A stretch of DNA of 64,000 nucleotides from assembly GCA_000092065.1 (NCBI GenBank), contig CP000596.1. One strand, given 5' to 3'. Of this stretch, positions 4,201-61,157 are shown piece after piece. The notes under the pieces were generated by a model that was not told the origin of the DNA, did not search any database, and saw only the letters and a list, made by a program, of their open reading frames with translations. How positions within the stretch are numbered: the first letter of the stretch is position 1; every line of letters begins with the position of its first letter. This DNA comes from Ostreococcus lucimarinus (lineage: Eukaryota). The position numbers and the translations under genes were made by a program.

Positions 4201-7200
4201 ACGTTAATTTTGTCAGCGATGTACTGTGGCCAATTAGGCGCTTCCATTTTAGAATCATCCCCGACGATGAGGCCGCTTTCCACGACGGAAAGCAAATACC
4301 GCAAGTTTGGAATCACTTTCGCTTCAATCGAGTGTACCGTGAATATGTAGGACGTGGGTTTCCTCGGCATCCATGTGATCGCCGTCGATATCCGCAAGCA
4401 CGGTTTATCGTCTTCCCTTAGCGCAAGATCGAGCGTATCGGCTAGCCTGTAGACAAGTTCAACGCCGCCACCTAGAATCGCATCGCCCTGTCGTCCCGGG
4501 ATGGCGACGTCGGTACTTGTCCGTATGACACGATTTATCGTAGCCGTGAGATCCCAACCGACGGCGGAACTCTGAGCGACCGAAAATTCTGGTCCAGACT
4601 CCTCATGGTATGCGTCAAAATCTATCTTAAAGAGAGGCATTCCGAGCTGGAATAAAACCTCCATGCCATACCCAGCGCCGAACCCAGGTTTCGCCTCCAC
4701 TTCGAGTTCTACGCCGCCACCGCCTTCGTGTGAACTCGACACAGACGCCGCTTGTTCGTCTGAAAGCTCCACGGACATGGTCACTTCCGTGCCCATAAGA
4801 AGTTCGGCGTAAGAGTTGCCACCGGGCGGATCATGTACCGTCATGTACACCAAACCTTCGAGTGGAACAGTTGCCCAATACACGTCATCGCTTTCTTCGC
4901 CGTAGATCCCTTCGCCTCGCGGTTTCGAGCCAAGAGAGATGAGCTCTCGTTTCAACGGAACTGTCACTGTCATCGAACCATCAAATCTACCCACAGTCAG
5001 TTCGACAGATCTGCGGTAATTTCCTGAGAGCTTAGGATCTCCCGCGACAATGAGTCGATCCGTCGTCTTCTCGCCCTCATCCGTGGGGAATAAAAGTTTG
5101 TCGCTCTCCGGATCGATCTCAACGTCAAAGTCGCACAATGGTCCTCCATTGCGATCGGTATGACATGGATTTTCGGCTATATCGGTGACGCTTTGTCTGA
5201 ACATGGCCACCGTCATCCCGCCGCTCTCGGCGCTAGGCAGTGTCAAGCATTCATCGAGTGAACCATTCTCCACATGCAGTTCAAGTACTTTGGCGCTCAC
5301 AAGTTTCGGCCCCAAAGCGTAGAGCCCTTCTCCACCGAAATCATCAAAAAATGGCGATATCCCAACAAAGTGGTTGTGTCTAATGCCACCAGCTTTCACG
5401 CCATCAACGTCCCAGCAGTAATCGCCATCGTCGGTGATTACAGAAAGATCTACGAACTCTGCGCACAAATAACCGTGGTACTTGTATCTCGCCGAATACC
5501 AAGTGTGCTCAGTGCGTAATGGTACAAGCCTTTCGATCGTTGTTGGATGCTGGCGGAAGTATGGAATGATGCCGTCTACTCCGACATGACACAACGCGTT
5601 CGGATATTTCTCCTCGCGCATCGCCGTGAAATTCGCTGTGGATGGGGCCTCTTCGATCACTACCGAGTAATCCATCGCGGCGAGTGGCCACCGTCTTCCA
5701 TTCGGAACTTCTTGATATGTTGGTATAACGTCTGAGTTTTCCTTGTCGCGGTCAGGTAGAGTCCAGCCGGATACTTGAGCCGAAGTGAAGATGGCTGGTG
5801 GGTGACAGCCATTGATGGGGGTAATTTTGAAAGTCGCCCCTGTGTAAAGCTTTTCACACTCACCTTGATAGACACCCAAATCGACGTTTGCCGTCGTCGT
5901 GTCTGAGAAGAAAATGTACTTTTTCGATGATACGGCGTGGAGAGTAACTGTGGTCGGTTTACCGTCGCAGCTCCAAATTCTCGTAGCTTCCACGATGGTG
6001 GTTCCCGAATAGCAGATTTCGTGACCGGGATATTCCGCGGTTATCGTGTAGGTTTTCCCGTTTGTGACTGCGAATTCGAACCAGCCAGTCTCGTCTGTAG
6101 TGAATTGTCGCGGCGCACCAGCCTCGCTTTCATCTTTGACATAAATGCTTGCCTCAAAAAGTCCACACTCGGACAACTCGGTCCATTCTATTGGGAACAT
6201 GACGGCACCCAAAATGACCACTGTCGTATCGTCCTGCATTTTCTGCTCTACCTGATGATTATGGGTCAGCTCCAGGTTGATGACATCAATATCAGCCGTA
6301 TCCGAAAATACGGTATCACTTTCATATAGGTCACCATCGTCATCCGAAGTTCCAGCTTGCTTGACGACGTCATTGTTGTTGAATACATGCACGATTTCTG
6401 GCAGCTGCTGCGTGCTCCACAGCGCGACATCCAATCCAGGACGAGTGACGCGCGCGAACAGCGTCTGCGGATCATCTTGAACCACGTCGTGCAGTAGTGC
6501 GGCATCTAAGTCAACGAAAATCTTATTCGAGCCGGGAGATGTAGCAAGTAACGGTGTTGCATACACGGAGGTCTCATCGCCGACGACAATGGCATCGAAC
6601 TCGGCGTCTTCGAGAGGGCGACAGTGATCGATTTTTGACACAACATCACCCCCACTCTCTGCGCTGAGCTCATCATACCACTCGTTCCATCCCTCGGAAG
6701 AGTACGGAACGTGGGCTGATGTCGATCTTCGAACGATGAAATTTTCGCACGCTTTGCCAAACACTTGGCTACGCGCATCCTGGTGAGACTCGTCGGCGAT
6801 CGCAGCGCTAACACTCTGCACGGTGAACAAATCGAAGTCGTATGTAATTTTCCGCGGAGGGAATACGAGCACTGGCTCGACAAACAATGTCCGTTGAGCC
6901 AGACGATGCGCCACACTGAGGAATTCTTGTGCGTTCAGAAGTCCATCACCGTCCATATCCAACGACGAATTCCAAAGTTCTTCTGAAATTATCGCGTACC
7001 CATTGCTTGGAAAACTCGCACCTTTCTCGATGATGGCGGTCAACTCTGACTTATCGATGCCCCCGCTTCCATCTGTGTCTGTCTCGTCAAAATCGTGCAT
7101 CGGTGGTGGAGGCGATGGCGGTGGTGGCGATGGCGGCGGCGGCGATGGCGGCGGCGGCGATGGCGGCGGCGGCGACGGCGGCGGTGGCGACGGTGGCGGC

Positions 7201-10200
7201 GGCGGCGATGGCGGCGGCGGCGACGGCGGCGGCGGTGACGGTGGCGGCGACGGCGGCGGCGGCGATGGCGGCGGTGGTGATGCGATGCGCTCGACCCAGT
7301 GAACGTTTGTGAGAGAACCGGCCTTGACAGAGATATCCGCATGCAGCGGGTACTCGGGAGTCTGTTGACTGGTGTAAAAGCGAATTTCATTCTTGAAGTA
7401 CTCCACGGCTCCGGCGTCGTTGATGACGATTTGCAGCGAGTCGGACGAAGAGTAAGTCCCAGCCATCGTATACTCACGCTTGCCTTTCTCGTACACCTTG
7501 ATCTGTTTGGTATGCGTACAAAAAATCGCAAAATCAAGACTTTGATAATTCGTCGAATCCGTCGTCGACTGAGAGTTCAAACCGATCATCCTGTTGTTGT
7601 ATCCTCCGGCACAGACTGCGGAGATGCCACGCACAGAGTCAGAACCATTTCGAATAGCGCGCTGACTCACCGCACCGGCGTCCCAAGCGCCAGTCACTGC
7701 AGCCGTGCGCGTGACTTGGCCGCTTTCTGTGGATTCGACGCCGACTTGCGATACCCACGCGACATGATCGTCCGCCACCGCCTTTCCTGGCGGCGGCGGC
7801 GGCGGTGACGGTGGCGGCGGCGACGGCGGCGGCGGTGACGGTGGCGGCGGCGACGGCGGCGGCGGCGGCGACGGCGGTGGTGACGCGATGCGCTCGACCC
7901 AGTGAACGTTTGTGAGAGAACCGGCCTTGACAGAGATATCCGCATGCAGCGGGTACTCGGGAGTCTGTTGACTGGTGTAAAAGCGAATTTTATTCTTGAA
8001 GTACTCCACGGCTCCGGCGTCGTTGATGACGATTTGCAGCGAGTCGGACGAAGAGTAAGTCCCAGCCATCGTATACTTACGCTTGCCTTTCTCGTACACC
8101 TTGATCCGTTTGGTATACGTACAAAAAATCGCAAAATCAAGACTTTGATAATTCGTCGAATCCGTCGTCGACTGAGAGTTCAAACCGATCATCCTGTTGT
8201 TGTATCCTCCGGCACAGACTGCGGAGATGCCACGCACAGAGTCAGAACCATTTCGAATAGCGCGCTGACTCACCGCACCGGCGTCCCAAGCGCCAGTCAC
8301 TGCAGCCGTGCGCGTGACTTGGCCACTTTCTGTGGATTCGACGCCGACTTGCGATACCCACGCGACGCTACCAAGTATCTCGCCCGCCACCGCCTTTCCT
8401 GGCGGCGGCGGCGGCGGCGACGGCGACGGCGGCGGCGGTGACGGTGGCGGCGACGGCGGCGGCGGCGATGGCGGTGGTGGTGACGCCATGCGCTCGACCC
8501 ATTTAACATCGCTGAAGGAACCACGCATAATAAAAGCAACATCCGCGTGCAGCGGGTACTCGGGAGTCTGTTGACTGGTGTAAAAGCGAATTTCATTCTT
8601 GAAGTACTCCACGGCTCCGGCGTCGTTGATGACGACTTGCAGTGTATCGCTGTCCGTATACGCCACTGCAGCACCCTTAATTTTTTTACCACCTTCGTAC
8701 ACTTCAACTGCATCGGAGTGAAAATTGCATCTGATGCTGAAGTCCATTCGACTGGACACGGTCTCTGCCGCGGACTGCCGATTCAAGCCGATGAACTTGA
8801 GGCCGGACTCAGACCCACAACGAGCCGAGATTCCGCGCACTGAGTCCGTCAGGCCGTGGATCGACCGACGACTCACCGCACCGGCTGCGGAAAAATAATT
8901 CCACCAATTTGGAGATCGCCGCCAAACTTTTCGATTCGACGCTTTGGCTCTGCGAAGCGTCACCCAGACCACGTTGCCAACCGCCGCTTTTTCAGGCGGC
9001 GGCGGCGGCGGTGGCGACGGCGGCGGTGGCGACGGCGGCGGTGGTATGTACTGCGCAATGTTCCCCAGGAGGCGGCGCCCCCAGCGCTGCCTACCCAAGA
9101 GTGACGTCGTGGTTTCAGGAGATGACGAATCATCTTCCTTTAAGACCAATAAGACTTTACTGGGTACGTTCAGCGGGTCTGTCACGTCCGACGTTTGCAA
9201 GATGGGCTGCGTCGTCTTTTCAAAAACTTCCACTTTGTACGCCCCGATGTCAACGTGAGTTTTGATTGGCGTCATACCCGTGGAGTCTGTGATATGAACA
9301 ACAAACGATCCTTCCGAATCAGTGACCGCGCTGAAAGGGCATCGCGTCTCACCACCCAATACTCTTATTTCAGTCAAATTGACGTCTCGAACCGCCACGA
9401 CTGATACAAACTGCCCGTGCATCGCCTGCACAGTGTCGCCCCCGCCCCCCCCGCATGTAAACGTCAAACAGTCTGCGAATTCATCACTGACATCAGACGG
9501 ATCGTGGTTACATGCATATCCATAATTAGTCGTGTCTTCGGGATCGATTTCATGCACGTGCACTTTCATCGGTAAACTAAGCGTCGGACTCGCCTGTTGC
9601 CGAAATTCAAATCCCGTTACTTCAACTTTGCTCGATTCCGCACCAAACGAAATCTCGGGGAAAGTTATGTATTGATCTTGAGATGATATGAGGGTGGCGT
9701 TGAAACGTCTCCACGATTCCTCATGTATGGTGAATGATTCCGTACTGGCGTCAGTGGCGGATGTTCCGCGCAAGTCGATTGACACCGCGCGTTCACCACC
9801 CAAAGACTTCGCCCAAAACGACACCACGACAGAATCTCCAGTCAGGGCGCGCAAAGACTCGCCAGGAACGTGCACCGTGACTGAAACGCCTGCGTCCACC
9901 GATTTTACAACGTCCTCGAAACCAGGTGGAGGCGCAGTTGGGCTCGCGGTTAAAGGACTGATGGCGCTTGTCTGAACAAGCTCGAGGCGTTCGGTGAGAG
10001 TATTAAGAGTGAAATGAGCTCCGGTGAAGTAGAACGTACTTTCCGACCAAGCTGATACAGTAAATCCGACGAAAGCGGCGTCCTCTAACGTGTGCTTAAG
10101 CCTTATTTTCCTCCATTTATTCGGTTCAGCTGTAATGACGAGCGCGTCACCAACGGTCTGACGGCCTGCTGCTGTAGTTTGTTGTTCATACCCTAAAATC

Positions 10201-13162
10201 TGGAAAGTCATAATCGCCTCCTTCCCGACGGCGCGTACCCAGCATTCCAACAACACTGTATCACCAGCTTCGGCGTCTAGTCGATCAGTATTTTTCGCCC
10301 AGAGTTTCTCGTCTGCTCGCACGAGTCGGATGACATCATTCTCGTAACGAGGTGGATCAACGATCACGTCTGGATCATCGCCTGTATCGCCAGAATACCC
10401 CAGTCGGTCGGTGAGAGAACCCTCGGCAAGTTGGCGTGCCTTGATCGATTGCGGCTGTAGACATACTTGAACACTGCCTATTGACATCCAAAGACCAAGA
10501 TCGACGCGCGCGTAGCCACCCGTCGATACGACGACAGATTCACCGGTAGGTATGTGATTCCCATCGGTGAGCGTGTACGCTTGTTCATTCAAAGGGTTTG
10601 AGTATGCGTGCTTGAAAAGTGCGACATTGCTGGAAGATGATTCGACGTCGTCGCTCGGCCGTAAAGTTATCGTCGAATTCTCATTTTCATCCGCGTCTGG
10701 AGGCCTGGACCCTCGGTAATTTGCGACCTCCCCATCTATTACGATCGGGTCGTGAAAATTAGCGCATATTCGGACGTCGGGTACTGGAACAGCGGAATCA
10801 CCGGCGTACACGTAACCACCTACCTCTCCGTGCCAGGGCGTGATGAATTTGAAAGGGACAGAGTTTATACTTCCACCGGATGATGTTTTCGTCACCACCT
10901 TATACTTCCAAATCTGTCCTGGGATTGCCGCCGCCTCTCTGTCGGCGAAAAGCAACGGCGCGTACGATCGATGACAGTACGTGAGGCCACTGTCAATCAT
11001 CACCACTGACTCATAAGGTGCATCCGTCAGAGAATCCTGCATGCTTTGACGAAGAATCTCGAACCCAACGTCATTCCAGGCGGTATCACGGAAGCTGAAA
11101 GTGACTCCTACTGGATCCAGTTTTCCGTTGACGTCAATAGTAGAACCATCGTAGTACAATCCACCTCCACATTCAAACTTTGAGTAAGTTTCCTCGCGAG
11201 CGTCCGAAATGACGCCACTTAAACACACAATTCTTCGAGCTTTTGGTGCGGATGATTGACGAAGCACGCAGCGCTTGTAATGTCCACATCTTACGGTATC
11301 AATGAACATCACTTCGCGTATCACTCCGGTATACACTCGAACGTCGTCGAATTCAAAATCCACCGCGCCAAGCAGTGTAACGTCCGTCATTGACTCGAGC
11401 GCGCTCAGCGGCCAAGTTTCATCGCGCGTGTAAGTCGTATCATCGATTACTGTGGCCTTTGCGTCACTCGTTGGATCTACGTACAATGTCATGAAATTCA
11501 CCGAGTTTACGGCGAACGCGATGAGGTGCCACTCCCCGTCGCACGCAAAATCAAGTTTCACATCCTTTGAGGATGTGAAAGCGCTCGGAGGATCCACAGA
11601 CTCCTTGACCTGATGAGATGCCCGCAGTTCGACCATGCCGTCGCTCGTACGTATCTTGAGGTATACGTGGAGTCTGTGATCGTGAAGTCCCAACTGTCCT
11701 TGAAACTGAGCGACCGTCATGAGTGATTCGTCGTTGGAGGATTTGGGTTGCGAGCAACGACTTGGATCGATGCGCACCCATGTGCTCATCGCGATGTCGT
11801 GCCCAAGCGTATCTTCTTTATCAAGAGAGTATGAATAATCGTTCGTCCCAGGATCATCCACTGCTTGAAGGCAGCGAAATCCGTTGCCCCCCGAACATCC
11901 CGATATTGTGCGAGCGGATTTCGGCTGCAATCTCATCGGGACGGAAGACTGTCCGTCGACGATTGGCGCGACCGAATCAAGCGATCCGTCGTGTAAAGGG
12001 TCTTCATCAAACGTAAATGCTGCCACGAGAGAAGCGTGTTCGTCGAGAAAGTCACTCGTTGCTGGGCGAATGTCCGTGAAGGAGATGGGAAGTTGAAGCG
12101 TCGTGCCGCCGACTTCATACTCTTCAAAGCGCACATCGACGACGTCGTCGACTGTACCGTCGGCAACGTTGATCTGATTGAAGAGTATACCATCCACGTA
12201 TGCGCAGACGTAATCGCCGTTCGTTGGCTTAGGACTGTACGACCATGCAGTGGTGAGCCCGTTGAGGCCACTCACACAGCGATTCTCCGTTTGCCAGTCG
12301 AGAGTCGGATAGGTGATGCTATCGATACTGAAACTGTTCGACGGAGCTCCGCTGCACTTGACGGGTCGAACGGGGATTTCCATCACGTCGACAATAGACA
12401 CTGCCAGATCTGTGTCGTGCGCGGCGCGAAATTGGTCATTCCAAACGTTGAGAATGTACCTCGAAACGCTTTGTTCCACCAACATGGCCTGAAGTTCATT
12501 CAGTCGCAGCAGTCCGTCGCTGGGATCGACGTCGTGCCTACGAAAGATGCTTTCCTTTGTCTTGTAAATTTCGCCATCATCGCACAGCACGTTGTTGAAT
12601 TGATCGTTACTCAGCAATATGTACCGGACCAGTTCTTCAAGCCCCGAATTCTGATTCGCGCTCGCTTGGCCGGCGGCGTTGAATCCGAGAGGCAGGTGCA
12701 AATCGCAACCCTTGATAACTTCGAAAGAGTGTTGACCAACGGTTTCCGAACCTGGAACGATGCCATCGACCGTAACAAAGTGACAGTTATAAGTTATGGT
12801 GTGAGATCCAACCGAGTGCGTCCCATCCAACTCTGTGAGCGCGAGCGCCTTCGGGAAAAAATCATTCCATTTGCGACACGGTAAGTTATCCGCGTAATCC
12901 GACTCGGAACACGACTGATCGTCTCGTTTCACGCGAACATCGCATCGGAGACCAAGCGCGTGATTGCTCACGCTCTCTTCATTCACATTCAGTAAACAAT
13001 CGCTCGCTTCAGCGCACGCGGGATGATGCACCGCGACTTGGAAATCGTACGAGTACGCCGCAACCCTCTCCGTGGTGGAACCAAATCTCACTTCAATCGC
13101 AGCACCGGCACCAGGCGGCGGCGGTGGACTCGGCGGCGGCGGGCTCGGCGGCGGGCTCGGCG

Positions 13163-13202
<40 letters not shown>

Positions 13203-13569
13203 CGGACTCGGCGGCGGCGGCGGGCTCGGCGGCGGCGAACAATTCGCTATACCCTCGCAATTCTCCGTTCGTGTTTGTCCCTCATACGCTCCACAACTTC
13301 GTCCACCGTTTCGCGGCTTGACGGTGATCGTGAACGTCTGCGAGTACGTCGCCGGTCCGCAAAAAGCCGTGCAACTCCCTTGCCAAAAGCCTACACAATC
13401 CGTTTTCGGCGGCGACGGCGACGACCCCCCGTGGACCCCTCGCAGCGACGACAGCGCGCTCGCGACGACCAACCCGCGCATCATCGTTCGCGTCGCGTCC
13501 CATCGACGTCCGGCGCCATCGCGCGTCGTCGACCGCGACGGCGCGCGTCGTTCGCGAAGCTGACGCGGC

Positions 13570-13571
<2 letters not shown>
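1254..13571 (-). CDS. Giant (about 4,080-4,105 aa) single-exon cell-surface protein with a C-terminal TM anchor. N to C: signal peptide, TSP1-like Cys motif, extensin-like (S)PPPP spacers, LamG/concanavalin-like region, three tandem ~190-aa repeats, EF-hand/dockerin-like Ca-binding pair, ~2,500-aa C-terminal ectodomain. Function unknown.
   Basis: The ORF is uninterrupted for 12,318 nt on the minus strand. The probable true start is the ATG ATG at 13479-13484, giving MMRGLVVASALSSLRGVHG, which looks like a signal peptide. The TSP1-like motif is CVGFWQGSCTAFCGP...RNGGRSCGAYEG...NCEG. SPPPPSPPPP runs are encoded by GGCGGCGGCGGCGAY tracts. The LamG-like signature is FACDGEWHLIAFAVNSVNFMTLYVDPT. 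The Ca-binding loops are DTDGSGGIDKSE and DMDGDGLLNAQE. The C-terminal TM helix is VAIFYTPFAFTLCVALFAFAF, followed by a short tail. Confidence 0.8.
7040..9060 (-). repeat. In-frame tandem array of a roughly 600-bp unit (two near-identical 603-bp copies plus one or two diverged copies) inside the giant gene. Each unit encodes a ~160-aa domain plus a PPPS spacer.
   Basis: The string cgctcgacccagtgaacgtttgtgagagaaccggccttgacagagatatccgcatgcagcgggtactcgggagtctg occurs at 7291 and again at 7894, a period of 603 bp (201 codons). A diverged copy begins at 8494. The duplicated spurious ORFs in the track (MILRFFVRIPN..., MNVCERTGLD...) reflect the same repeat. Confidence 0.85.
13113..13240 (-). repeat. 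Coding G-rich 12-15-nt periodic microsatellite (GGCGGCGGCGGGCTC-like) encoding the (S)PPPP extensin-like spacer. Similar tracts lie at about 7100-7290, 7790-7890, 8395-8490 and 8990-9045.
   Basis: The periodicity is visible directly in the sequence. Read on the minus strand it gives SPPPPSPPPPPSPPPP. Confidence 0.7.
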
Positions 13572-47681: not shown

Positions 47682-48977
47682 TCACGCCGCGACCGGGTCG
47701 AGCTGCTTGTCCGTGAACACCCACTCGTCGCCCTTCTTGACGACGGCGATGCACTTGCTGCCGACGCGCCAAGTCGCCGTGGCGATGGGCGTCGGGTCAT
47801 ACAGGTACAGATCCGGGAACGCCTTTTGCAACGCCTCGGTGGCCTTCTTGGCGTGGTAGTGCGGGATGGTGTGGTTGATGTGATGCGCGACGTGCGTGCT
47901 GCCGATGCGGTGGTGCAAAAAGTCAAACACTGGCCCGTACGGGCGATCAATCGTCATAAACGCGCCCTTGACCAAGTTCCAGTCGTCGCCCTCAAAGTGC
48001 GGCACGTCCACGTCAGTGTGCTGCAACCACGTGTACAGGACGAGCCAAAAGTTGGTCACCATGTACGGTCCGACGTAGAGCGCCATGACGGTGGCGACAC
48101 CGCTGTGCGCCGCCCACGCCGCGAGCGCTCCCAAAACCGCCACGACGCCGACGTCGCTCTGCCAAACCTTCTTCGCCCACTTCCCCGGGAACAACGCGTG
48201 CTTACCCTTCTCGCCCATGAACGGCAAGAAGTGGTTCGTGTTCCCGCGAACCGGCCCACCGCTGGCGCCGGTGAGCAAATAAATCGGCCACCCCAAGGCG
48301 AACACTCCGACGAGGTTCAAAAACGTAAACGGCCCTTCGCCGAGCAACCCGCGCAACTTGAACATCACGTTCGCGTCCTCCGTCCCCAACCGCGCCGGCA
48401 CGTGCGTCTCTCCCTCGAGCACGTGATTAGTCCTCGAGTGATGCACCGCGTGCGACCGCTGCCACGAAAAATACGGCACCAACAACAACGAGTGCAGCGC
48501 GTATCCCACCGCGTCTTGAATCGTTTTATCGTCGCTAAACGCGCCGTGTCCGCACTCGTGCGCCGCGACCCAGCACCCGGTCGCCGCCGTTCCCGTCACG
48601 AACGCGTACGCCACCCACACCGGCCAATACGCCGCCGTCACCGGCACGCACGCCCACGCCAGCGCGCCGCACGCCAGCGTGATCGCCGTCGAGCACGCCG
48701 CGTACGCGAGCGACTTTCCCGTGTCCCGCTCGAAGCACTCCCTCGGGATCGCGCGCAGCACCTCTTGCATCGTCGGGAACGTCTTCGCCTCGGCGTTCAG
48801 CGCCTTGGCGTTCAAGCCCGAGCGCAGTTGTTCGTGTCGCGACGTGTCGTAGGTCGTCGCGGCGTCGGCGCGCGCGGCGCGGGCGACGCGCGCGCGATCG
48901 CGACGTGACGTCGTCGAGCGAGAGAACGCGGCGCGCGGGAGCGCGCGAGCGCGCGGGAGCGTCAGAGCGCGGAGCAT
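47682..48977 (-). CDS. Membrane-bound fatty-acid desaturase, Δ12/ω6 (FAD2/FAD6)-like, with a plastid-type transit peptide
   Basis: The three His boxes are HECGHGAF, WQRSHAVHHSRTNH (FAD2-like W..SH..HHS.T) and HVAHH. The N-terminus is MLRALTLPRARALPRAAFSRSTTSRR. There is no cytochrome-b5 fusion. Confidence 0.85.
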   Translation of the reverse strand: MLRALTLPRARALPRAAFSRSTTSRRDRARVARAARADAATTYDTSRHEQLRSGLNAKALNAEAKTFPTMQEVLRAIPRECFERDTGKSLAYAACSTAITLACGALAWACVPVTAAYWPVWVAYAFVTGTAATGCWVAAHECGHGAFSDDKTIQDAVGYALHSLLLVPYFSWQRSHAVHHSRTNHVLEGETHVPARLGTEDANVMFKLRGLLGEGPFTFLNLVGVFALGWPIYLLTGASGGPVRGNTNHFLPFMGEKGKHALFPGKWAKKVWQSDVGVVAVLGALAAWAAHSGVATVMALYVGPYMVTNFWLVLYTWLQHTDVDVPHFEGDDWNLVKGAFMTIDRPYGPVFDFLHHRIGSTHVAHHINHTIPHYHAKKATEALQKAFPDLYLYDPTPIATATWRVGSKCIAVVKKGDEWVFTDKQLDPVAA

Positions 48978-52388: not shown

Positions 52389-55300
52389 TTAGATCTCGGC
52401 CGAGGTGGAGACGTCGAGGATTCGACGGCGAATGACGCGGTCGGCGACGGCGAGTTGGGCGTCGGCGACGGAGGCTCGAACGGCGCGAATCGCGGATGCG
52501 GTCGTGGCGATGATGGCGATCGCGCCGAGAGGCGATTTGGGGGGTAACGTTCCCGCGCGAATGTGCGCGGAGAGGGCGTAGATGGCGTACACGGTGGGGA
52601 TGGCTTGGAAGACGTAAAAGGCGACGACGGCGAGGCGTTGCGACGCGGCGTACGCGACGGTTTCGTAGTGAGGAAAACCGCTCGCCGTTCGGGCGAATGT
52701 GCGGAAGTGTACCGTGGCGTCGCGGAGTTCGGTGATGAGCGAACACGCGATTGCGACGACGAAAACGTCGTGGTGCAACGCGAGGAGCGTGACGGCCAAA
52801 GCGACGACGCGGCGAAACATCTCGCCGCGCTCGCGGCGGGCGCCGTCGACGACGACACGACCGACCATCACCATGACGTACACCTTGAGTAACTCCACCG
52901 CAGCTAACTTTCCAGCCTGCTTTCTTTCGTTCGGAAGTATCCACGAGATGGCGGCGGCGCGCACGTTTTGCGTGTCGTCGATGAAGCGATACGCCGCCGT
53001 GCCGACGGCGGCGGCGACGACTGCCTTGGTCAACGGGACGCTGAGCGCCAAGGAACGTTCCATGAGCGTGCCGTGTGCGCTCGATGCTTCGGCGAGCTTG
53101 ACTTTACTAACCTTTTTACCGAGCTGCGGCAACGCCACGCTCGAGACGACGGCGGCTAAGAAGGTCGCGCAGCTAAAGACTGCGACGACGCCGACGAGCA
53201 GAGGCACAGCCATCGGGAGCATTTCCGTCACTGTTGAAGGATTGCGCTGCGCGAACATCGCACAGATGGCCACTACCACGGCTAAGTATTGAAATTCCGG
53301 CGCGATGGACGAGGTAGAAACCTCGCTTCTAGATGCATCGTCGCTCTTCTTGACCCACGTCATTTGCAAATCGTAAATCAACTTGTTCGCAAACGCAGCC
53401 TCGCAATACGCAAAGTAAAACTCAAACATGCGCAAAAACTTTCGTGAGTAGCCCATAGAAAGGATTCGTTGGGCGTGATGCATCATACGCTCGCGCCACA
53501 ATCGCAAAGTGACGGCATAATGCAAGCCGATATCGTCGTATCCCTCGAGCACGAGACCACGCGGCGAAGCGCTCTTCATCGCCCCCACCGACGGCAAGTG
53601 GCCACCTGGGAAAATGTACGCACGAATGAAGTCGCTTTCACTGTTGCAGTATGACTCGTAGCGGCCGTCCGGCATAGTGATGACTTGGATCGCGGCTCGC
53701 CCGCCGGGTTTCAGCACTCTGTGCACGGTGCCAAAGAACGTCGGCAAGTGTTCGTGTCCGACCGCCTCAAGCATTTCAATCGACACCACCTTGTCGAACG
53801 TTCCTTGCACATCGCGGTAGTCACAAATGACGATGTCGATCAAGTGTGACAAACCGGCGGCTTTGACGCGCGCCGTTGCTTCGGCGTGCTGCTCGTGCGA
53901 CAGTGTCAAACCAGTGACATGGCAATTCTTCTCGCTCGCCATGCGAATCGCGCACGTCCCCCAACCGCAGCCAATCTCAAGCACGCGATCGCCTGGCTTA
54001 ATACCCGCTCGAGCGATCATGGCGTCTATCTTTAAATACTGCGCCTCTTCCAAGTGCTTTTCTTGGGCCTCGAACGTCTTGAACTTCTTCAAAACGTCTA
54101 CGGACATCGCAGCGTCGTCGATAGCGCCGTGAATGGCGCTCGAGTACAACATGGTGTCATCCAAAAACAGCTTGTAGAACTCGTTTCCAGCGTCGTAGTG
54201 GTACTCTATGTTTTTACGAGATCCTTCTTTCGTGTTACTTAACGCCTTGTGTGCTGCCATCTCCATTTGCGCTCCTACCCAGTTAACCGCCTCCGTGAGG
54301 AGACCCACTGGGTCGAGACGCATCTTCGGCTTACAGCTCTCCGTCTCTGCGCCAGAAGCCGCGGGATGGCCTTTGCAAATCATGTCCATGAACCCAATTA
54401 AATCCACGTCGAAATCTCCGTTCATATAACACTCACCAAGACCGATATCTGCGCGCAAAATCGTTTGCATGAAGAGTCTTTGGTTGAATACCGTCATGGT
54501 AATCGTCTCCGACGACGCGTTGGCCTCTTTACCCATCATAAGACGTTCGCTTCCATCCGGTAAAATCATGCGGAGTCGTTTGTCGGCTGGTAACCACCCC
54601 ACGCACGCGCGCTGGAAAAGCGGTAAGACCATCTTCGTGCTCATGGACAACTTTGGATCGCACGACCGCGGCATCCACGGCACGGATGACTTGCCGAGCA
54701 TTTTGTCCACACAATCAACCGCTGATTTGATACCATCCTCGTGAAATCCGTAGCCGCACCACGCGCCGCAAAACCAAACCCGGTCTTTACCTTGTAACGC
54801 CTTGATCTCCTCCTGCGCCGCGATCGCGGCTTTGTTAAATAACGGATGCGCGAGCGTGACTTTGTGTTCGACCGAGCCTGCCTTCGGCTCGCGCGGCGGG
54901 TTCAGCGTGACGAACAAATCCTTCGTCCCAGGGGCGAGGTTTTGCAACAAGTTGACCCAGTAAGTCACACAAACGCTTCGATTTGCGGCTTCTTCGGCGG
55001 GAATGCCTAAGCGATCGCCGCGAAGGCAGTTCCACGATGCCCAGGCATCTTTGTTCCGCGGCATCATTGTTTCGTCGGTGTGCAAATACACGTCATTCTC
55101 TTGATACTTCACCGCCGACAGAGCCGAGACTTCTTCCTCGCTCGCAGCTTTGCCAAGTATTTGTAACGCTTGATCGCTATGGCACGCGAAAACGACGTCG
55201 TCGAAAACCTCGGTGGACTCCTGAACTTTTCCCTTGGCGTCCTCTGTCTTAAAAGTCACGCTCACGCCCCCCGCCACGCGGTACACCTTGGTCACGTACG

Positions 55301-56072
55301 CGCCCTTACGCACGTCTTTGAGCTCGCGCTCAACGGCGTCGACGTAAGCGCTCGATCGACCACTGACGACTCGCCAGAGAGGTCGCTCGATGATGTTTAA
55401 TAAGTGATGGTTCACCCAAAATCGTACGAGCGTGCGCACTGGGAACGCCATCGCGTCGTCGTCGCTGCAGCTCCAAATCGCCGCACACATCGGCACCACG
55501 TACGACTCTTGAAAGAACGCCGAGTACTTGCGAGCTTTGAGGTACTCACCCAAAGAGACGTCCGCGAACTCGCTCGCGCGTTCCGGCGCCAAAACCTCTG
55601 GCGCCTCGCGACCAAAACGTAGAATCTCCCGAATCATATTCAAAAACCGTCCGCTCATCGCGTTCGACTTTTGCGCGAACACGCCTTTCAGTCCTATGCT
55701 CCCCCACTCGACGTCTCCCGTGGACAATGAAAACGACATGTCGCTCGGTTCGCTCTCGACGCCGAGCTCGCCGAACAGGCCCACCAGGTGCGGGTACGTC
55801 GTCAGGTTGAACACCTGGAAGCCCAAATCCACGTCGCACTTCGCCGTGCTCGAGTATTGCGTCAGTGCGTGTCCACCGAGCTTCGTCGACGCTTCGAACA
55901 GCGTCACCGCGCCGCACGAGGGCGTCGAGGGCGCGCTTTGCGCTTTTACACTTTTTGGTCCGCCGCCGGCGTCGTCGGCGTTCTTTTGGAGTAAATACGC
56001 CGCCGACAGGCCGCTGACGCCGCCGCCGATGACGGCGACGCGTTTACCGCGTGTGGTGGCTTCGTCCTTCAT
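52389..56072 (-). CDS. CFAS: Tri-domain fusion of 1,227 aa: N-terminal FAD-dependent amine-oxidase-like domain, a cyclopropane-fatty-acyl-phospholipid synthase (CFAS, SAM methyltransferase) domain, and a C-terminal ~330-aa polytopic membrane domain
   Basis: The FAD Rossmann motif is KRVAVIGGGVSGLSAAYLL. The CFAS region reads NIEYHYDAGNEFYKLFLDDTMLYSSAIH…VLEIGCGWGTCAIRMASEKNCHVTGLTLSHEQ…FDKVVSIEMLEAVGHEHLPTFF…LKPGGRAAIQVIT. After it come six or seven hydrophobic helices (LAVVVAICAMFAQ…, MAVPLLVGVVAVFSCATFLAAVV, VVALAVTLLALHHDVFVVAIACSL, LAVVAFYVFQAIPTVYAIYAL…). Confidence 0.85.
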   Translation of the reverse strand: MKDEATTRGKRVAVIGGGVSGLSAAYLLQKNADDAGGGPKSVKAQSAPSTPSCGAVTLFEASTKLGGHALTQYSSTAKCDVDLGFQVFNLTTYPHLVGLFGELGVESEPSDMSFSLSTGDVEWGSIGLKGVFAQKSNAMSGRFLNMIREILRFGREAPEVLAPERASEFADVSLGEYLKARKYSAFFQESYVVPMCAAIWSCSDDDAMAFPVRTLVRFWVNHHLLNIIERPLWRVVSGRSSAYVDAVERELKDVRKGAYVTKVYRVAGGVSVTFKTEDAKGKVQESTEVFDDVVFACHSDQALQILGKAASEEEVSALSAVKYQENDVYLHTDETMMPRNKDAWASWNCLRGDRLGIPAEEAANRSVCVTYWVNLLQNLAPGTKDLFVTLNPPREPKAGSVEHKVTLAHPLFNKAAIAAQEEIKALQGKDRVWFCGAWCGYGFHEDGIKSAVDCVDKMLGKSSVPWMPRSCDPKLSMSTKMVLPLFQRACVGWLPADKRLRMILPDGSERLMMGKEANASSETITMTVFNQRLFMQTILRADIGLGECYMNGDFDVDLIGFMDMICKGHPAASGAETESCKPKMRLDPVGLLTEAVNWVGAQMEMAAHKALSNTKEGSRKNIEYHYDAGNEFYKLFLDDTMLYSSAIHGAIDDAAMSVDVLKKFKTFEAQEKHLEEAQYLKIDAMIARAGIKPGDRVLEIGCGWGTCAIRMASEKNCHVTGLTLSHEQHAEATARVKAAGLSHLIDIVICDYRDVQGTFDKVVSIEMLEAVGHEHLPTFFGTVHRVLKPGGRAAIQVITMPDGRYESYCNSESDFIRAYIFPGGHLPSVGAMKSASPRGLVLEGYDDIGLHYAVTLRLWRERMMHHAQRILSMGYSRKFLRMFEFYFAYCEAAFANKLIYDLQMTWVKKSDDASRSEVSTSSIAPEFQYLAVVVAICAMFAQRNPSTVTEMLPMAVPLLVGVVAVFSCATFLAAVVSSVALPQLGKKVSKVKLAEASSAHGTLMERSLALSVPLTKAVVAAAVGTAAYRFIDDTQNVRAAAISWILPNERKQAGKLAAVELLKVYVMVMVGRVVVDGARRERGEMFRRVVALAVTLLALHHDVFVVAIACSLITELRDATVHFRTFARTASGFPHYETVAYAASQRLAVVAFYVFQAIPTVYAIYALSAHIRAGTLPPKSPLGAIAIIATTASAIRAVRASVADAQLAVADRVIRRRILDVSTSAEI

Positions 56073-56242: not shown

Positions 56243-57712
56243 CTACGTCCACACGATGTGCCGGTCGGAGGTGACCTCGTATCGGCGCTGGTCCACGAGG
56301 CGACGCTTTACGTGGTCGCATCGAAGGTCGGGGTGCGGGAACCGCGCGAGGTCGGCCACGCCGTCGTGGTCGAAATCGGTGGCGGATCGTAATGGAATGG
56401 CGGTCGTGGCGTCGGGCCCGATTCCGAGCGCGGCTTCGGCGTTGTGCTTGGTTTCGAGGACGTGCTGGAGGAATTGTTCCTTGTCGCGCGCGTCTCCGCA
56501 ATACGACGCCGTGACGGTGTGCGCGCCTGGGAACGTACCATCGTCTCCCGCGTTGGCGGTGATGAAATTTCCCGATTCTGCGGTGCTCATGGCGTGGATG
56601 TGGAACTCTCCCGCCGTCGTCGGCACGAGAACGTAGTTGAAGTAACTCTGCTCCGGAAATTCGCCGTAGTTCACCTTGGATACTAATCGACTCTCCCCCT
56701 CGAGCCATCGCTCGCACAAACTCACGCTCCGCGTCGTGGCTGGGAAAATGACGAGCTTCGTGTTCATGTTTCCTTGCGCCTCGAACTCGTTACCGACGTC
56801 TGAGCTCACGACGACGTCGTACTTTTCGAGCGCGCTCGTCCACGCTTCGGTTGGATCGGACAAAAACACCGTGTCCGAATCGAGCATCACCACTGGGATG
56901 CGCGCTTTCAGTAATTCTAAGGCCGCGTGTACCTTGCGCCACGACATGGCGTCGCGCGCGACGCCATCGTTCGGATCTTGCCCGTACGCCCGCGCGAAGT
57001 CGGCGTCGTAAAAGCAATCCACGCCGCGATGCGCCTCGCACGATCGCTGCGTCTCCGTGTCGTACGTCAGCACCGTGACGTGCGGCAACAACGCCGGTGC
57101 CCATCGTTTAACGCTCTGAATCTGCAAATACGTCATCCCCCACTCGAACGGCTTGGTGAGGATTAATATCCGCGCGTCGTCGCTCGCCCGCTGCGTCTCT
57201 CGCACGTGCGTCCGCAGCCCCGGCACGCCGCGTCCCGGCGACCGCAGTCCCGGCACGCGCGTGCGCAGCGATATCCTATTTATCACATCCGCCTTCGCCG
57301 GCGCCCGCATCCGCGCTTCCGCGCTCAACGGCGCTCCGAAAAAGTTCCCTCGCTCGTTCGCCGTCCCGCCCAGCCTCGCCGTCGCCCTCGATCGCCCCGC
57401 CGCGCCCTCTCGCACCGCCGCGACCGCGAGCGCGCACGCCAGCGCGACCGCCACCGCGACCGCGATCCCCGAGCCGCGCGTTCGCGCGCCGATTCGCCTC
57501 GCGCGGCGCACCTCGGCGACGCGTTCGTCCTCAACACCATTCGCTTCCCGCGCGCGCGACTCCGTCCCGTACGCCGTCGACGCGCCGCGCGCCATCAGCC
57601 CCGTCGCGGGGTCCTCGCTCGACATCTCCGCGCGTCGACGCTCGCGCGCGCGCGCGTCGCGGTGTGCCGCGCGCGTCGCCCGCGCGCCGCGCGAAGATGT
57701 CGTAACACCCAT
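56243..57712 (-). CDS. Type-II membrane nucleotide-diphospho-sugar glycosyltransferase (Nucleotid_trans/GT77-like) with a DxD motif
   Basis: The N-terminal cytosolic tail is followed by a signal anchor (IAVAVAVALACALAVAAV). The catalytic region contains IPVVMLDSDTVFLSDPTEAW (DxD), VVVSSDVGNE and KLVIFPATTRS. An alternative ATG lies at 57623-57625. Confidence 0.55.
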   Translation of the reverse strand: MGVTTSSRGARATRAAHRDARARERRRAEMSSEDPATGLMARGASTAYGTESRAREANGVEDERVAEVRRARRIGARTRGSGIAVAVAVALACALAVAAVREGAAGRSRATARLGGTANERGNFFGAPLSAEARMRAPAKADVINRISLRTRVPGLRSPGRGVPGLRTHVRETQRASDDARILILTKPFEWGMTYLQIQSVKRWAPALLPHVTVLTYDTETQRSCEAHRGVDCFYDADFARAYGQDPNDGVARDAMSWRKVHAALELLKARIPVVMLDSDTVFLSDPTEAWTSALEKYDVVVSSDVGNEFEAQGNMNTKLVIFPATTRSVSLCERWLEGESRLVSKVNYGEFPEQSYFNYVLVPTTAGEFHIHAMSTAESGNFITANAGDDGTFPGAHTVTASYCGDARDKEQFLQHVLETKHNAEAALGIGPDATTAIPLRSATDFDHDGVADLARFPHPDLRCDHVKRRLVDQRRYEVTSDRHIVWT

Positions 57713-57822: not shown

Positions 57823-59406
57823 ATGGCGCGAACGGAGCGCACGGCGCTGCTGCGCGGCGATGAAGACGTGGAAATCGCGTTGAAAACGCGTCGCGGCGAC
57901 AAAGACGCGTCCGCGGACGACGCGCGCGAGGCTCTCGGGCGACGCGAGAGGCGCGCGCGCGAGTCGAACGGTGGCGCGGAGGCGTCGACGAGCGCGCGCG
58001 GGATGAAGACGGCGCGCGCGGTGGTGGTGGGGACGTTGGCGGCGGGGGCGATCGCGGCGGGCGTCGCGGCGTTCGCGGCGTCGCCGCGCGCGGCGTCGAT
58101 GACGGCCGATCGCGCGTTCGCGTCGCTCGGTGAGCGAGGAATGGCGATGTTGGGCTCGAGCGAGGGCGCGGGTCGCGACGCGAGACCGGTGCCGGTGCTG
58201 TCGAAACGATTTCCGGGATACGCGGCGCCGTTTAGCGGACGTTTCGAACGCATCGGCGAGTGGCCCGAGCACTGGTTGGTGAAGTGCTCGAAGCACGTGG
58301 TGTGCGAGCAATCACACTTGGGAGCGTTTTTGGGGTCTCGTGACGCGCCCGCGCCGTATGCTAACCCGCTCGGGCACGGGCTGCCGCGTGGATACGTGCG
58401 GCCAGACCAGGCGCGCATAAACGAGTTCATCTCGACGTGGGACAGCAACGCTAGACAGGCGCACGGGGGGGTGTATGAGCTGCCGCAAGCTGGCAAGGCT
58501 AAAATGGTCGCGATGGCGCATAATTCTGCGTACTTTTACAACTTTGTGCACGTGCCAAAGGCGGGCGGGTCGTATTTTTCCATCACCGTCTTGATGGAAG
58601 CCCTGGAGCGCAGCGGTGAGCATCACGGGTATCCGTACAAACTCACGCACGAGCCCGTATCGCACTGGATCACGCTTCCACAGGTGGATCTTACGCAGAC
58701 AAACGTGAAGGAGACGTATACACATTTCCAGGAAGGGAAGCCGGAGGGCATTTTTGGACCCGAAAATACCAAACAAATGTATAAAGAAGGCAAGCGGATG
58801 TTCGGAAAGGGCCAGTTCGGCATGGGACTGTGCGGAGTTATTCACGCACCGTGCGTGTACTTGACTGTGTTGCGCGATCCGGTGGAACGTTACTTGAGTC
58901 ATTACAAGTACTCGTGCTTGGCCGGGTCTGAGGGCGCCGCGCAGTGGTTACCCGAGTGGAAAGAACTCGACCGTTGCCCGTTGGATCCGATCGAGTTCAT
59001 GGACTACCTCGGACCAAACCTGGACTGGACGATCGAGCTCGCCCCTGGCGCGAAGAACGCGCAAGAGCGCATGGAGACAGCCAAAAGAAATCTCGACAGT
59101 AACTGCTTGCGATACCTCATACTCGAGAAGTACGAAGACGGGTTGGATAAACTCGGCGCGACGTACGCCGATTTCTTATTTTTGAACAAAGAGCCCGCGA
59201 AAGAAAGGCACAAAAAAAAAAACGAAAAGGCCAAAAACGCCGGGCACGGCGTGAGCGAAGGCGAGCAAGACAGGTTTGACATCTACATGAAGAACCAAAC
59301 CATCGTCGACGCCATCGCCGCGCGTCACGCAAAGATGAAGGAAGTGTACGACTACGCGGTCGCCAAATACGAAGCCAACTGGGCGCGCGCGCCGGGGAGC
59401 TGCTAA
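57823..59406 (+). CDS. Type-II membrane carbohydrate sulfotransferase, paralog 1 (Sulfotransfer_2/HS6ST-Gal3ST-like)
   Basis: The signal anchor is AVVVGTLAAGAIAAGVAAFAA. The 5'-PSB motif is FVHVPKAGGSYF. The 3'-PB motif is YLTVLRDPVERYLSHYKYSCL. There are conserved luminal Cys. Confidence 0.7.
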   Translation: MARTERTALLRGDEDVEIALKTRRGDKDASADDAREALGRRERRARESNGGAEASTSARGMKTARAVVVGTLAAGAIAAGVAAFAASPRAASMTADRAFASLGERGMAMLGSSEGAGRDARPVPVLSKRFPGYAAPFSGRFERIGEWPEHWLVKCSKHVVCEQSHLGAFLGSRDAPAPYANPLGHGLPRGYVRPDQARINEFISTWDSNARQAHGGVYELPQAGKAKMVAMAHNSAYFYNFVHVPKAGGSYFSITVLMEALERSGEHHGYPYKLTHEPVSHWITLPQVDLTQTNVKETYTHFQEGKPEGIFGPENTKQMYKEGKRMFGKGQFGMGLCGVIHAPCVYLTVLRDPVERYLSHYKYSCLAGSEGAAQWLPEWKELDRCPLDPIEFMDYLGPNLDWTIELAPGAKNAQERMETAKRNLDSNCLRYLILEKYEDGLDKLGATYADFLFLNKEPAKERHKKKNEKAKNAGHGVSEGEQDRFDIYMKNQTIVDAIAARHAKMKEVYDYAVAKYEANWARAPGSC

Positions 59407-59466: not shown

Positions 59467-59708
59467 GCTGGATGGAGCGCGCGTCCAAAGTCCAAAATCG
59501 CCGAGCGCGCCGCCGGCGCCTCCGTCTCGTCGATGTCTGCTCGCGCCTCACTGCGCCGCGCGCGGCGTCTCGCGCGAACGCCCACGGCTCGAACGCGCGT
59601 CTAAAACGCTTTCGAGCGCGAGCGACGCCTCCGCGTTCGCGAGCGATCGCCGGCGACGCCCCGAGCGACGATCTCTCGCGGCGGGCGGGGCGTAACACCC
59701 TCTGGACG

Positions 59709-61157
59709 ATGACGAAAGAAACGAGCGCCCACAACGCCGAGCGCGCGCCGTTGGTCGTGAAAACCACCGCGCGCGATGCGGTGGACGTAGAGATTGCCGA
59801 TCGCGCGCGTCACGCGGGCGGTGAAGGCGAAGCAACGCCGACAGCGCGAGGAAAGTGGTCGATCGCGGGCAGAGCGGCGTTGGCGGTGGCGTGCGCGACG
59901 TTCGCGGCGGTGGGCGTCGCGCGCGCGTCCACCGTTCGTCGCGGTGGTGAGGTCGTGACGTTGTTCCCCGAACTAGGTGGGGTTTCGGAGTGGCGCAGGG
60001 ACTTCGTGGCGGGGAAGATTGCGCCGGGGCGGAAGTTTAGCGACACGGTGCCGAGCAAGACGTGCGTGCGACAAACGAGCCGGAATAGATTGGAGGACGT
60101 GGAAAAGTATTACATCGTGAGGGCGATGAATCACGAAAACGAGCTGCATAAGGGTAATAAAACGATCGCGGCGATGCCGACGTACGATCACATAAAGGCG
60201 GAGTCGATGTTCATGACGGGCATGGTGAACAAGAATTCAGAGTCGCCGTACATGTTGCCGTCAAGCGGGTACGAGAAGAGCATCAAGCAGTCCGGAAACT
60301 CGGCGATGATGTATAATTTCGTGCACATTCCCAAGGCTGGGGGGACGTACTTGTGCGAAGTTTTGCAGCAGGTGCAATCTCATTTGGACGCTCGACACGG
60401 GAGCGTCTTTGGAAATTACAACCTGTACCGCGACCCATGGTCCATGAAACCGCTCTTAGACGCCACGTCGCGCAATGTTTGGCAAACCACGCATCTCATG
60501 AAAAGTAAGCTCAAGGCGTTTACCGACGAAAATCTGGCGAGAGGCTACGCCAAGGGCCAGCGGATGATGTCGAAGGGGTCGTATAATATGGGCTTGTGCT
60601 CAACCACGGAGGCGCCGTGCATGTACCTCACCGTTTTACGAAATCCCTTTCAGCGCTTTATGAGTCACTACAAGTATTCTTGCCTCGAAGGCGCGGAGAA
60701 CCGAGCGATGTGGATGCCGGCTTGGAAAAAGCAAGGCTCGTGTCCACTCAACCCATTGGAATGGTTTTACTTCACGCAAGGCGACGATTGGACGCATCTG
60801 ATCGCCCCGGGGGCGTTCCCGCGTGACTCCCAGTGTCACATCGACGCCGCGAAGAATAATTTAATGAGTGGTTGCATGCGATACTTGATCACGGAGAACT
60901 TGCACGACGGATTAGCCAAGCTTAAGAATAAGCTTCCAGATTTCGCGACGTTGGATCTCAACGCCGTCAAGTCGCTCTTCAAGAATGACAGCGCTGGTCG
61001 ATTAACGCCGGCGCTGCAAGCGAGGTTGAAGCGGTACGAGGAAGATAAGAACATGATGCACCAGATCAAACAAGGACTGTGGCATCAAACGAAAATTTAC
61101 AACTTTGCCGTAGAGAACTACGAAAAGTCGTGGGACAGAGACATTCAGACGTGCTGA
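59709..61157 (+). CDS. Type-II membrane carbohydrate sulfotransferase, paralog 2, a tandem duplicate of 57823-59406
   Basis: The protein has FVHIPKAGGTYL and YLTVLRNPFQRFMSHYKYSCL, and is collinear with paralog 1 along its whole length (…CMRYLITENLHDGLAKL vs …CLRYLILEKYEDGLDKL). The start ATG 59709 aligns with the paralog-1 N-terminus (…DVEIA…). An alternative ATG lies at 59472. Confidence 0.7.
   Translation: MTKETSAHNAERAPLVVKTTARDAVDVEIADRARHAGGEGEATPTARGKWSIAGRAALAVACATFAAVGVARASTVRRGGEVVTLFPELGGVSEWRRDFVAGKIAPGRKFSDTVPSKTCVRQTSRNRLEDVEKYYIVRAMNHENELHKGNKTIAAMPTYDHIKAESMFMTGMVNKNSESPYMLPSSGYEKSIKQSGNSAMMYNFVHIPKAGGTYLCEVLQQVQSHLDARHGSVFGNYNLYRDPWSMKPLLDATSRNVWQTTHLMKSKLKAFTDENLARGYAKGQRMMSKGSYNMGLCSTTEAPCMYLTVLRNPFQRFMSHYKYSCLEGAENRAMWMPAWKKQGSCPLNPLEWFYFTQGDDWTHLIAPGAFPRDSQCHIDAAKNNLMSGCMRYLITENLHDGLAKLKNKLPDFATLDLNAVKSLFKNDSAGRLTPALQARLKRYEEDKNMMHQIKQGLWHQTKIYNFAVENYEKSWDRDIQTC

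Follow-up and report, generated by a model that had tools for sequence, protein, structure and literature searches.

The 64,000-nucleotide stretch of the Ostreococcus lucimarinus genome analyzed here (the window, to which all coordinates refer) encodes on its minus strand a three-domain protein of 1227 residues, in which a flavin adenine dinucleotide (FAD)-dependent oxidase domain and an S-adenosylmethionine (SAM)-dependent methyltransferase domain of the cyclopropane fatty acid synthase (CFAS) family are followed by a C-terminal membrane domain. We propose that this protein is probably a membrane-anchored acyl-chain methylase/desaturase of the UfaD/UfaM type, with its TLC-fold tail acting as an anchor and lipid-binding platform. 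This proposal draws on the continuity of the open reading frame (ORF), the identities of the first two domains and their synteny in bacteria, the predicted fold of the tail together with the loss of its motif residues, and the wide distribution of the three-part layout among algae. The gene comprises the following features:

52389..56072, minus strand: complete coding sequence of the three-domain protein, from the list of ORFs (ATG start, 1227 codons plus stop, uninterrupted)

54663..56048, minus strand: N-terminal, UfaD-like FAD-dependent amine-oxidase-family domain, residues 9-470 (Pfam and bacterial oxidase homology)

55995..56033, minus strand: FAD-binding Rossmann motif VIGGGVSGLSAAY, residues 14-26 (coordinates and translation)

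54225..54521, minus strand: N-terminal lobe of the CFAS-like module, residues 518-616 (start of the alignments to NCBIfam CFAS equivalog models at residues 518-522)

53355..54224, minus strand: SAM-dependent CMAS/CFAS catalytic domain of the UfaM/plant-CPS type, residues 617-906 (Pfam PF02353)

54045..54101, minus strand: in-frame 57-nt GT...AG stretch, residues 658-676, VDVLKKFKTFEAQEKHLEE (the 19 residues absent from the model XP_001422042.1, which treats the stretch as an intron)

53958..53984, minus strand: SAM-binding motif VLEIGCGWG, residues 697-705 (aligns with VLDIGCGWG of Escherichia coli; fits VL(E/D)xGxGxG)

53685..53687, minus strand: codon of Q796, at the position of the bicarbonate ligand H266 of E. 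coli CFAS (residue mapping)

53295..53354, minus strand: polar linker from the CFAS domain to the first membrane helix, residues 907-926 (predicted local distance difference test score below 50 in both models; variable in alignment A1)

52401..53294, minus strand: C-terminal 8-helix membrane domain of divergent TLC (ceramide-synthase/TLCD/CLN8) fold, residues 927-1224 (predicted structure and profile link)

52659..52685, minus strand: predicted cytosolic loop between helices 6 and 7, ASGFPHYET, residues 1130-1138 (no other motif is as conserved among tails of this type)

52392..52442, minus strand: conserved amphipathic C-terminal end DRVIRRRILDVSTSAEI, residues 1211-1227 (family pattern R.R(I/V)(I/L)..(A/S)TSA(D/E)(V/I)-COOH)

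The ORF of 1227 codons is a genuine single gene of O. lucimarinus, and its tail is real coding sequence. A first-pass annotation, made from the sequence alone, had described one continuous three-part frame without an internal stop, and this is borne out by the coding signal of the tail as well as by its conservation in orthologues. In the same frame, GC content at third codon positions stays at 0.68-0.82 throughout the tail and up to the end of the ORF. The chance probability of 323 stop-free codons, given the base composition, is 2.7e-4, and just 1 of 20,000 shuffled sequences remained open over the length of the tail. Full-length orthologues with 67-74% identity retain the fusion, and their tails are 40-54% identical over the entire length (homologues P0002-P0011). 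Furthermore, since 7 independent assemblies, from the environment or from cultures, all yield the identical 1227-residue product, the sequencing error that the first-pass annotation had named as a possible cause of a false read-through is excluded. At the transcript level, the fusion is supported in relatives, because it is contained in complete transcriptome ORFs from MMETSP with the same tail type (P0017) and with a tail type that scores as TLC (P0031, P0097, and P0106). That 52389-53350 is instead a separate gene, an untranslated region or an intron-broken segment, with the protein ending after the CFAS domain, is very improbable. While this explanation can appeal to a RefSeq model that is flagged as partial and stops there, and to the occurrence of long spurious ORFs in other frames of this GC-rich region (191 and 233 residues), it is countered not only by the persistent codon bias and the conserved fusion, but also by the confident folding of the tail into a known membrane fold and by the distance of only ~48 bp between the stop codon and the upper end of the next ORF.

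The RefSeq/GenBank model in question (XP_001422042.1 / ABP00336.1; 877 residues; flagged "partial") belongs to the same 90% cluster as the ORF product and is identical to its residues 11-906, minus 19 residues. The model ends at residue 906, exactly where the CFAS homology closes, and therefore omits the whole membrane tail (52389-53354). The 19 missing residues correspond to the GT...AG stretch, whose peptide is conserved across all close orthologues and includes the HLE of the conserved CFAS motif 'LExAQ'; the predicted intron is thus probably spurious and the stretch coding. Both the omitted tail and the spliced-out stretch look like annotation errors. A comparable case is found in a cluster from Emiliania huxleyi (P0035 / P0192), in which a member of 1202 residues stands alongside an NCBI model of 960 residues with a tail of 86 residues; to judge from these lengths, the latter is probably truncated in the same way.

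In the N-terminal domain, Pfam Amino_oxidase and NAD_binding_8 match residues 11-384, and the nearest solved structure is LkcE (E 5e-52). Alignment A3 shows no variation at the glycines of the Rossmann motif (G16, G18, and G21), and the motif lies almost at the N-terminus, which therefore leaves no room for a targeting peptide. Mean column identity of the oxidase domain across phyla reaches 61% in the same alignment, which argues that the domain is catalytic.

The second domain is identified as a member of the CMAS family, with PF02353 matching residues 617-900 (E 1e-77; 261.6 bits against a cut-off of 27) and solved CFAS structures matching with E values from 4.5e-45 to 2.5e-39 (e.g., 7qos, 4.5e-45; 6bqc, 5.2e-42). 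The preceding lobe (residues 518-616) gives weak matches to the N-terminal lobes of such structures. NCBIfam CFAS models span residues ~518-910; their equivalog cut-offs are missed by far (234 versus 600 and 211 versus 400). The canonical pocket of E. coli Cfa (C139/E239/H266/Y317) is incomplete: E769 and Y852 are kept at the positions of E239 and Y317, whereas H266 is replaced by Q796 and C139 by S645. Each of the 120 eukaryotic homologues and each of the 72 bacterial operon-linked CFAS-like proteins has Gln at the H266 position, and so does cotton CPS (PMC3132707); this Gln is the signature of a subfamily that unites plant, algal, and operon-linked enzymes. We considered the exchange of H266 for Gln as a marker that separates methylases from cyclopropane synthases and rejected it, as the proven synthases GhCPS1 and GhCPS2 also carry Gln (PMC3132707). 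Because these two true producers of cyclopropane fatty acids share the Ser/Gln pocket, the signature leaves the chemistry open; in the same study, no cyclopropane product was obtained from GhCPS3, the Arabidopsis-like clade or an Agrobacterium operon enzyme (PMC3132707).

To find prokaryotic counterparts, the oxidase-domain alignment was used to scan species genomes of bacteria and archaea, and the loci were read by same-strand ORFs and Pfam. Bacterial homologues of the oxidase are 37-45% identical over residues ~11-466 (E down to 8e-109), and in 72 of the 80 loci a CFAS-like gene lies on the same strand ~0.7-0.9 kb downstream; among the loci listed, these operon-linked genes are ~35-44% identical to the Ostreococcus CFAS domain. 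A DUF1365 gene (E 4.5e-74; 254 residues) is located between the two in the one locus in which this was checked with Pfam (L053), and an MFS_2 transporter follows the CFAS-like gene in the three loci checked (L053, L021, and L045). The coordinates read within these loci are as follows:

L053: 7299-8063, 9312-10631, 11148-11900

L021: 9367-11438

L045: 9259-10590

Single loci hold further genes, namely a DUF3833 gene further downstream in L053 and a chalcone-isomerase-like gene in L021. The order of oxidase, DUF1365, and CFAS-like genes matches that of ufaD-ufaO-ufaM in Rhodopseudomonas palustris (RPA2571-2569), which is necessary and sufficient for production of the monomethyl furan fatty acid 9M5-FuFA (PMC7380195), and the DUF1365 gene is the counterpart of UfaO. 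In that pathway, UfaM methylates cis-vaccenate, UfaD desaturates the product, and UfaO, the DUF1365 protein, inserts O2 (PMC7380195). The likeness to a bacterial cfa cluster that the first-pass annotation had drawn can thus be upheld for the adjacent oxidase and CFAS-like genes, but not for the membrane domain, which is not of the DUF1295/DUF1365 type and has no counterpart in the bacterial loci examined. Its further idea that the fusion recapitulates the operon as one polypeptide has to be given up, as the protein combines a two-gene bacterial module with a eukaryotic membrane domain. DUF1365 is not part of the fusion, and none was found among those ORFs of the window that were examined.

The C-terminal domain is polytopic, as had been anticipated, and comprises ~300 residues with 6-7 Kyte-Doolittle hydrophobic segments (within residues ~922-1167), which AlphaFold models as 8 long helices. 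In a fold search with this predicted structure, the match to ceramide synthase (CerS) spans 232 residues, placing the tail among helical bundles of the ceramide-synthase type, even though its sequence identity to TLC-domain enzymes (yeast Lac1, human CerS6, TLCD1, and CLN8) is just 8-10%. The families that had been suggested for the tail were not recovered: DUF1295, ICMT, NnrU, and DUF1365 gave no Pfam signal in the tail even at E<=1 and no fold match. A word-indexed search with the tail alone returned no match, though a 99%-identical protein is in the database, probably because the hydrophobic query saturated the candidates; an exhaustive search with a hidden Markov model (HMM) of 1.84 billion representatives retrieved 24 clusters only, mostly fragments of the same fusion; and a Talin match, the sole one of the tail profile in a PDB sequence search, was judged spurious.

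We compared the 120 closest homologues, counting a tail as present if at least 180 residues follow the CFAS domain. This was the case for 89 of them, usually with 4-7 hydrophobic segments, and these include Chlamydomonas, Volvox, Chlorella, Coccomyxa, Micractinium, Dunaliella, Haematococcus, Bryopsis, Ostreobium, and a pedinophyte as well as the cryptophytes Guillardia and Hemiselmis. The three-part layout is therefore the usual algal form and not peculiar to the Ostreococcus genome. It has apparently not been described so far, as literature searches on cyclopropane fatty acid synthases together with TLC domains, LAG1 or CLN8 yielded no account of the fusion.

Iterated HMM searches sorted the tails into two families. 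Group A, with 26 members, consists of the Ostreococcus protein, its orthologues of 67-74% identity, and remoter relatives, while group B comprises 62 members from chlorophytes, cryptophytes, and others. Several group B tails exceed the Pfam TLC gathering score (P0031 with 45.9 bits, P0062 with 30.3, P0097 with 28.6, and P0081 with 24.9), and the group B profile matches the sequence of the solved CLN8 (E 0.0026). The two groups are linked by one homologue that is retrieved by both HMMs (P0037) and by an hhalign comparison of their alignments (A1 versus A2), which gave 90-92.8% probability in the region of helices 5-7, the highest value with an E value of 3.8e-7 over 87 columns. Profile comparison thus makes the Ostreococcus tail a homologue of tails that score above the Pfam cut-off for TLC, and within group A itself TLC is the sole recurrent Pfam family, matched below the threshold at E<=1 by 3 of 19 members. 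It should be noted that one subgroup (P0031-P0034, P0036, P0038, and P0039; 1389-1595 residues) has longer tails of 575-690 residues, each with 7-9 hydrophobic segments; the TLC domain of P0031 lies at the very end, after ~350 residues without a Pfam match.

Three motif residues are retained in group B tails: an invariant Glu, and a His and an Arg that align with CLN8 H138 and R204, respectively. In the Ostreococcus tail, the His column is Arg (MFRRVV), with a register uncertainty of ~1 residue and no His within that range, and Gln (FQAIPT) stands in the Arg column. The tail thus lacks both the acyl-accepting His and the Arg that is conserved in TLC-family acyltransferases. The motif Glu is present (LITELRD) and is not invariant in group A. 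Neither the His nor the Arg column is conserved across group A. Where other members of the group still read "R..PH", the Ostreococcus clade shows "Q..PT", and the motif thus looks progressively eroded. Because the canonical acyl-His and Arg are gone, the tail of the Ostreococcus lineage is probably an anchor and lipid-binding pseudo-enzyme and not an acyltransferase. The pair within 'LHHD' (residues 1099-1102) was considered as the HH motif of ceramide synthases and rejected, being unconserved in the family and 14-15 residues off the motif column.

Other parts of the tail are strongly conserved. In alignment A1, P230 of the ASGFPHYET loop is invariant and G228 nearly so, and group A tails also conserve a Pro in helix 7. 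At the C-terminus, R311, R313, T319, S320, and A321 are invariant across the 19 group A tails of this alignment; the terminal pattern matched no known sorting or interaction motif. Cryptophyte tails of group B end differently, with KxKxx-like sequences (KVKAD and KVKNE) that suggest retrieval to the endoplasmic reticulum. From the 8-helix topology we infer that the C-terminus lies in the cytosol, together with the ASGFPH loop and the loops rich in Lys and Arg, on the same side as the soluble domains.

Taken together, domains 1 and 2 would correspond to bacterial UfaD and UfaM, fused in eukaryotes into one chain. The CFAS-family methyltransferase would add a one-carbon unit from SAM to a lipid-bound acyl chain, across its cis double bond, and the FAD domain of the amine-oxidase family would then most likely oxidize or desaturate the methylated chain. 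Domain 3 would be a eukaryotic addition, an 8-helix TLC bundle with both ends and the conserved loops predicted to be cytosolic, which may tether both soluble catalytic domains to an endomembrane, probably that of the endoplasmic reticulum, and may provide a cavity for binding lipids or acyl chains beside them.

Several observations weigh against this proposal. The direct score of the tail with Pfam TLC (PF03798) is 12.7 bits (E 0.12), under the cut-off of 24.6, and its assignment to the TLC fold, as suggested by a predicted structure, is joined to sequence data by a profile link of only 79-87 columns. Predicted template modelling (pTM) scores of AlphaFold were 0.76 for the tail alone and 0.50 for a construct of CFAS and TLC domains; because the latter gives no confident fixed orientation of the two domains, a direct hand-over of substrate is unsupported. 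The strong conservation of the ASGFPH loop and the C-terminal motif suggests a role more specific than that of a passive anchor. Furthermore, the transcript support for the fusion comes from relatives of Ostreococcus, and we are not aware that furan or cyclopropane fatty acids have been reported from this alga. As far as the sequence allows us to judge, the product may be either a cyclopropane or a methyl-branched furan precursor, and the cyclopropane chemistry of GhCPS1 and GhCPS2 proceeds with the same pocket.

The protein could accordingly be read as a plant-type cyclopropane synthase similar to SfCPS and GhCPS1/2, which would form dihydrosterculate-type chains on phospholipids, with the oxidase only enhancing activity and the tail only anchoring the enzyme. 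We regard this as possible, though clearly less probable than a UfaD/UfaM-type function. It would account for the domain order, which is that of the plant enzymes, for the Ser/Gln pocket with its retained E239 and Y317 equivalents, and for the public annotation of algal homologues as 'cyclopropane fatty acid synthase'. However, as described above, cotton GhCPS3, the Arabidopsis-like clade, and the Agrobacterium operon enzyme yielded no cyclopropane product, and the nearest bacterial relatives are found in clusters of the ufaD-ufaO-ufaM type, which make methyl-branched and furan fatty acids. The conservation of the oxidase domain also speaks for more than an enhancing role. In addition, singlet oxygen induces Chlamydomonas CFA1, a SAK1-dependent gene with one of the strongest responses, together with a DUF1365 gene (PMC4067076), which parallels the co-induction of the furan-fatty-acid genes in Rhodobacter and the sigma-E regulon that controls them.

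Alternative roles have likewise to be weighed for the tail. That it is a working acyl-CoA-dependent acyltransferase like TLCD1, CLN8 or CerS, which loads the acyl chain edited by the fused methylase and oxidase or re-esterifies it into a lysolipid, appears unlikely. CerS6, TLCD1, and CLN8 act as acyl-CoA-dependent acyltransferases via an acyl-histidine, TLC-family proteins have now been shown to be lysophospholipid acyltransferases, and CLN8 H139 and R204 are conserved and mutated in disease (PMC11838012). This precedent, the retention of all three motif residues in group B, the extent of the CerS fold match, and the strong conservation of the cytosolic loops are in line with such an activity, but the exchange of His for Arg and of Arg for Gln, the lack of conservation of either column across group A, and the displaced and unconserved 'LHHD' histidines argue against it in Ostreococcus. 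A related and rather speculative scheme, to which we give a low probability, regards the algal three-domain proteins including CFA1 as "edit-and-install" machines, in which the TLC acyltransferase captures a chain (as an acyl-His intermediate, or from a lysolipid or acyl-CoA) and the fused methylase and desaturase convert it into a methyl-branched conjugated precursor of furan fatty acids that scavenge singlet oxygen, so that the chain would be made and inserted into a particular membrane lipid by one protein; in this scheme, the TLC domain of the Ostreococcus lineage would be a pseudo-enzyme derivative that no longer transfers acyl groups but keeps lipid binding, and its ASGFPH loop and TSAEV tail would form a new, conserved interface on the cytosolic side. 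Some bacterial cfa-type clusters contain DUF1295/DUF1365-type genes, from which the first-pass annotation had derived its view of the tail as a bacterial partner of the DUF1295/ICMT/NnrU or DUF1365 type. The loci examined do hold a polytopic partner, the MFS_2 transporter, but with the TLC fold found instead of these families, this origin of the tail is already contradicted and has hardly any probability left.

Within the window, the ORF directly upstream of the three-domain gene encodes a Nucleotid_trans glycosyltransferase (56243-57712, minus strand), and two tandem, weakly sulfotransferase-like ORFs are located further upstream (57823-59406 and 59472-61157, both on the plus strand). The genes are packed very tightly here, with ~170 bp upstream and ~48 bp downstream of the coding sequence. 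Two genes downstream of the CFAS-type gene and on the same strand, a fatty-acid desaturase is encoded (47682-48977, minus strand; PF00487, E 7e-24); this proximity may be coincidental, though the products of both genes modify acyl chains. A giant ORF of 4105 residues (1254-13571, minus strand) matches no Pfam family at E<=1e-5, and its region is lower in GC content (0.51-0.56) than the remainder of the window (0.60-0.69).

Homologues of "cyclopropane synthase" are widespread in plants and algae, and both their true products and the role of the oxidase have been in question since 2002. A recent proposal holds that such homologues make furan fatty acids, which act as membrane scavengers of singlet oxygen. 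A third domain of TLC fold as the usual algal form provides a testable link between acyl-chain editing and lipid remodeling, since the TLC family was established as acyl-CoA-dependent lipid acyltransferases only in 2024-2025, and the finding bears on Chlamydomonas CFA1 with its marked response to singlet oxygen. The algal TLC tails range from catalytically equipped to degenerate and form a natural comparison set for the contribution of this domain. Moreover, the O. lucimarinus reference model has a truncation to be corrected, along with the probably spurious intron.

Compared with known systems, the Ostreococcus protein shares with the bacterial UfaD, UfaO, and UfaM proteins (Cereibacter sphaeroides and R. 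palustris) the order of oxidase before methylase as well as the Gln signature, whereas the bacterial proteins are separate polypeptides, with UfaO between the other two, and the polytopic partner in the operons examined is MFS_2 and not TLC. With E. coli Cfa and other stand-alone bacterial CFAS enzymes, it has in common the CMAS fold, the SAM motif, and the equivalents of E239 and Y317; it differs from them in Gln for H266, Ser for C139, and the fusion to an oxidase and a membrane domain. The land-plant bidomain enzymes (Sterculia SfCPS, cotton GhCPS1-3, and Arabidopsis AT3G23510) show the same order from FAD oxidase to CFAS and the same Gln-for-His pocket, with Ser at the C139 position in GhCPS1 and GhCPS2, and they are membrane- or lipid-droplet-associated, lipid-modifying enzymes. 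AT3G23510, renamed UFAM1/UFAD1, and the DUF1365 protein AT1G30130 localize to lipid droplets, and a role of the former as a UfaM/UfaD fusion in furan-fatty-acid synthesis has been proposed (PMC10940516, PMC13247531). However, the land-plant enzymes have 865-873 residues and no transmembrane tail (PMC3132707), and the Ostreococcus protein, to which the first-pass annotation had ascribed an addition of ~330 residues, exceeds them by ~350 residues, with a TLC-fold domain of ~300 residues.

The closest architecture is that of Chlamydomonas reinhardtii CFA1 (Cre06.g281250; 1201 residues), which has the same three parts and falls into the 90% cluster of a group B member (P0078). In CFA1 and the other three-domain homologues of chlorophytes and cryptophytes, the first two domains are 45-48% identical to those of the Ostreococcus protein and the multi-helix membrane tail likewise has ~300 residues. 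Their group B tails score as bona fide Pfam TLC domains and have His, Glu, and Arg, whereas the group A tail of Ostreococcus is without His and Arg, and its relation to them becomes visible only by profile and fold comparison. The same two residues set the Ostreococcus domain apart from the TLC enzymes Lac1, CerS6, TLCD1, and CLN8, and while those are stand-alone proteins, the Ostreococcus domain is fused to two soluble enzymes.

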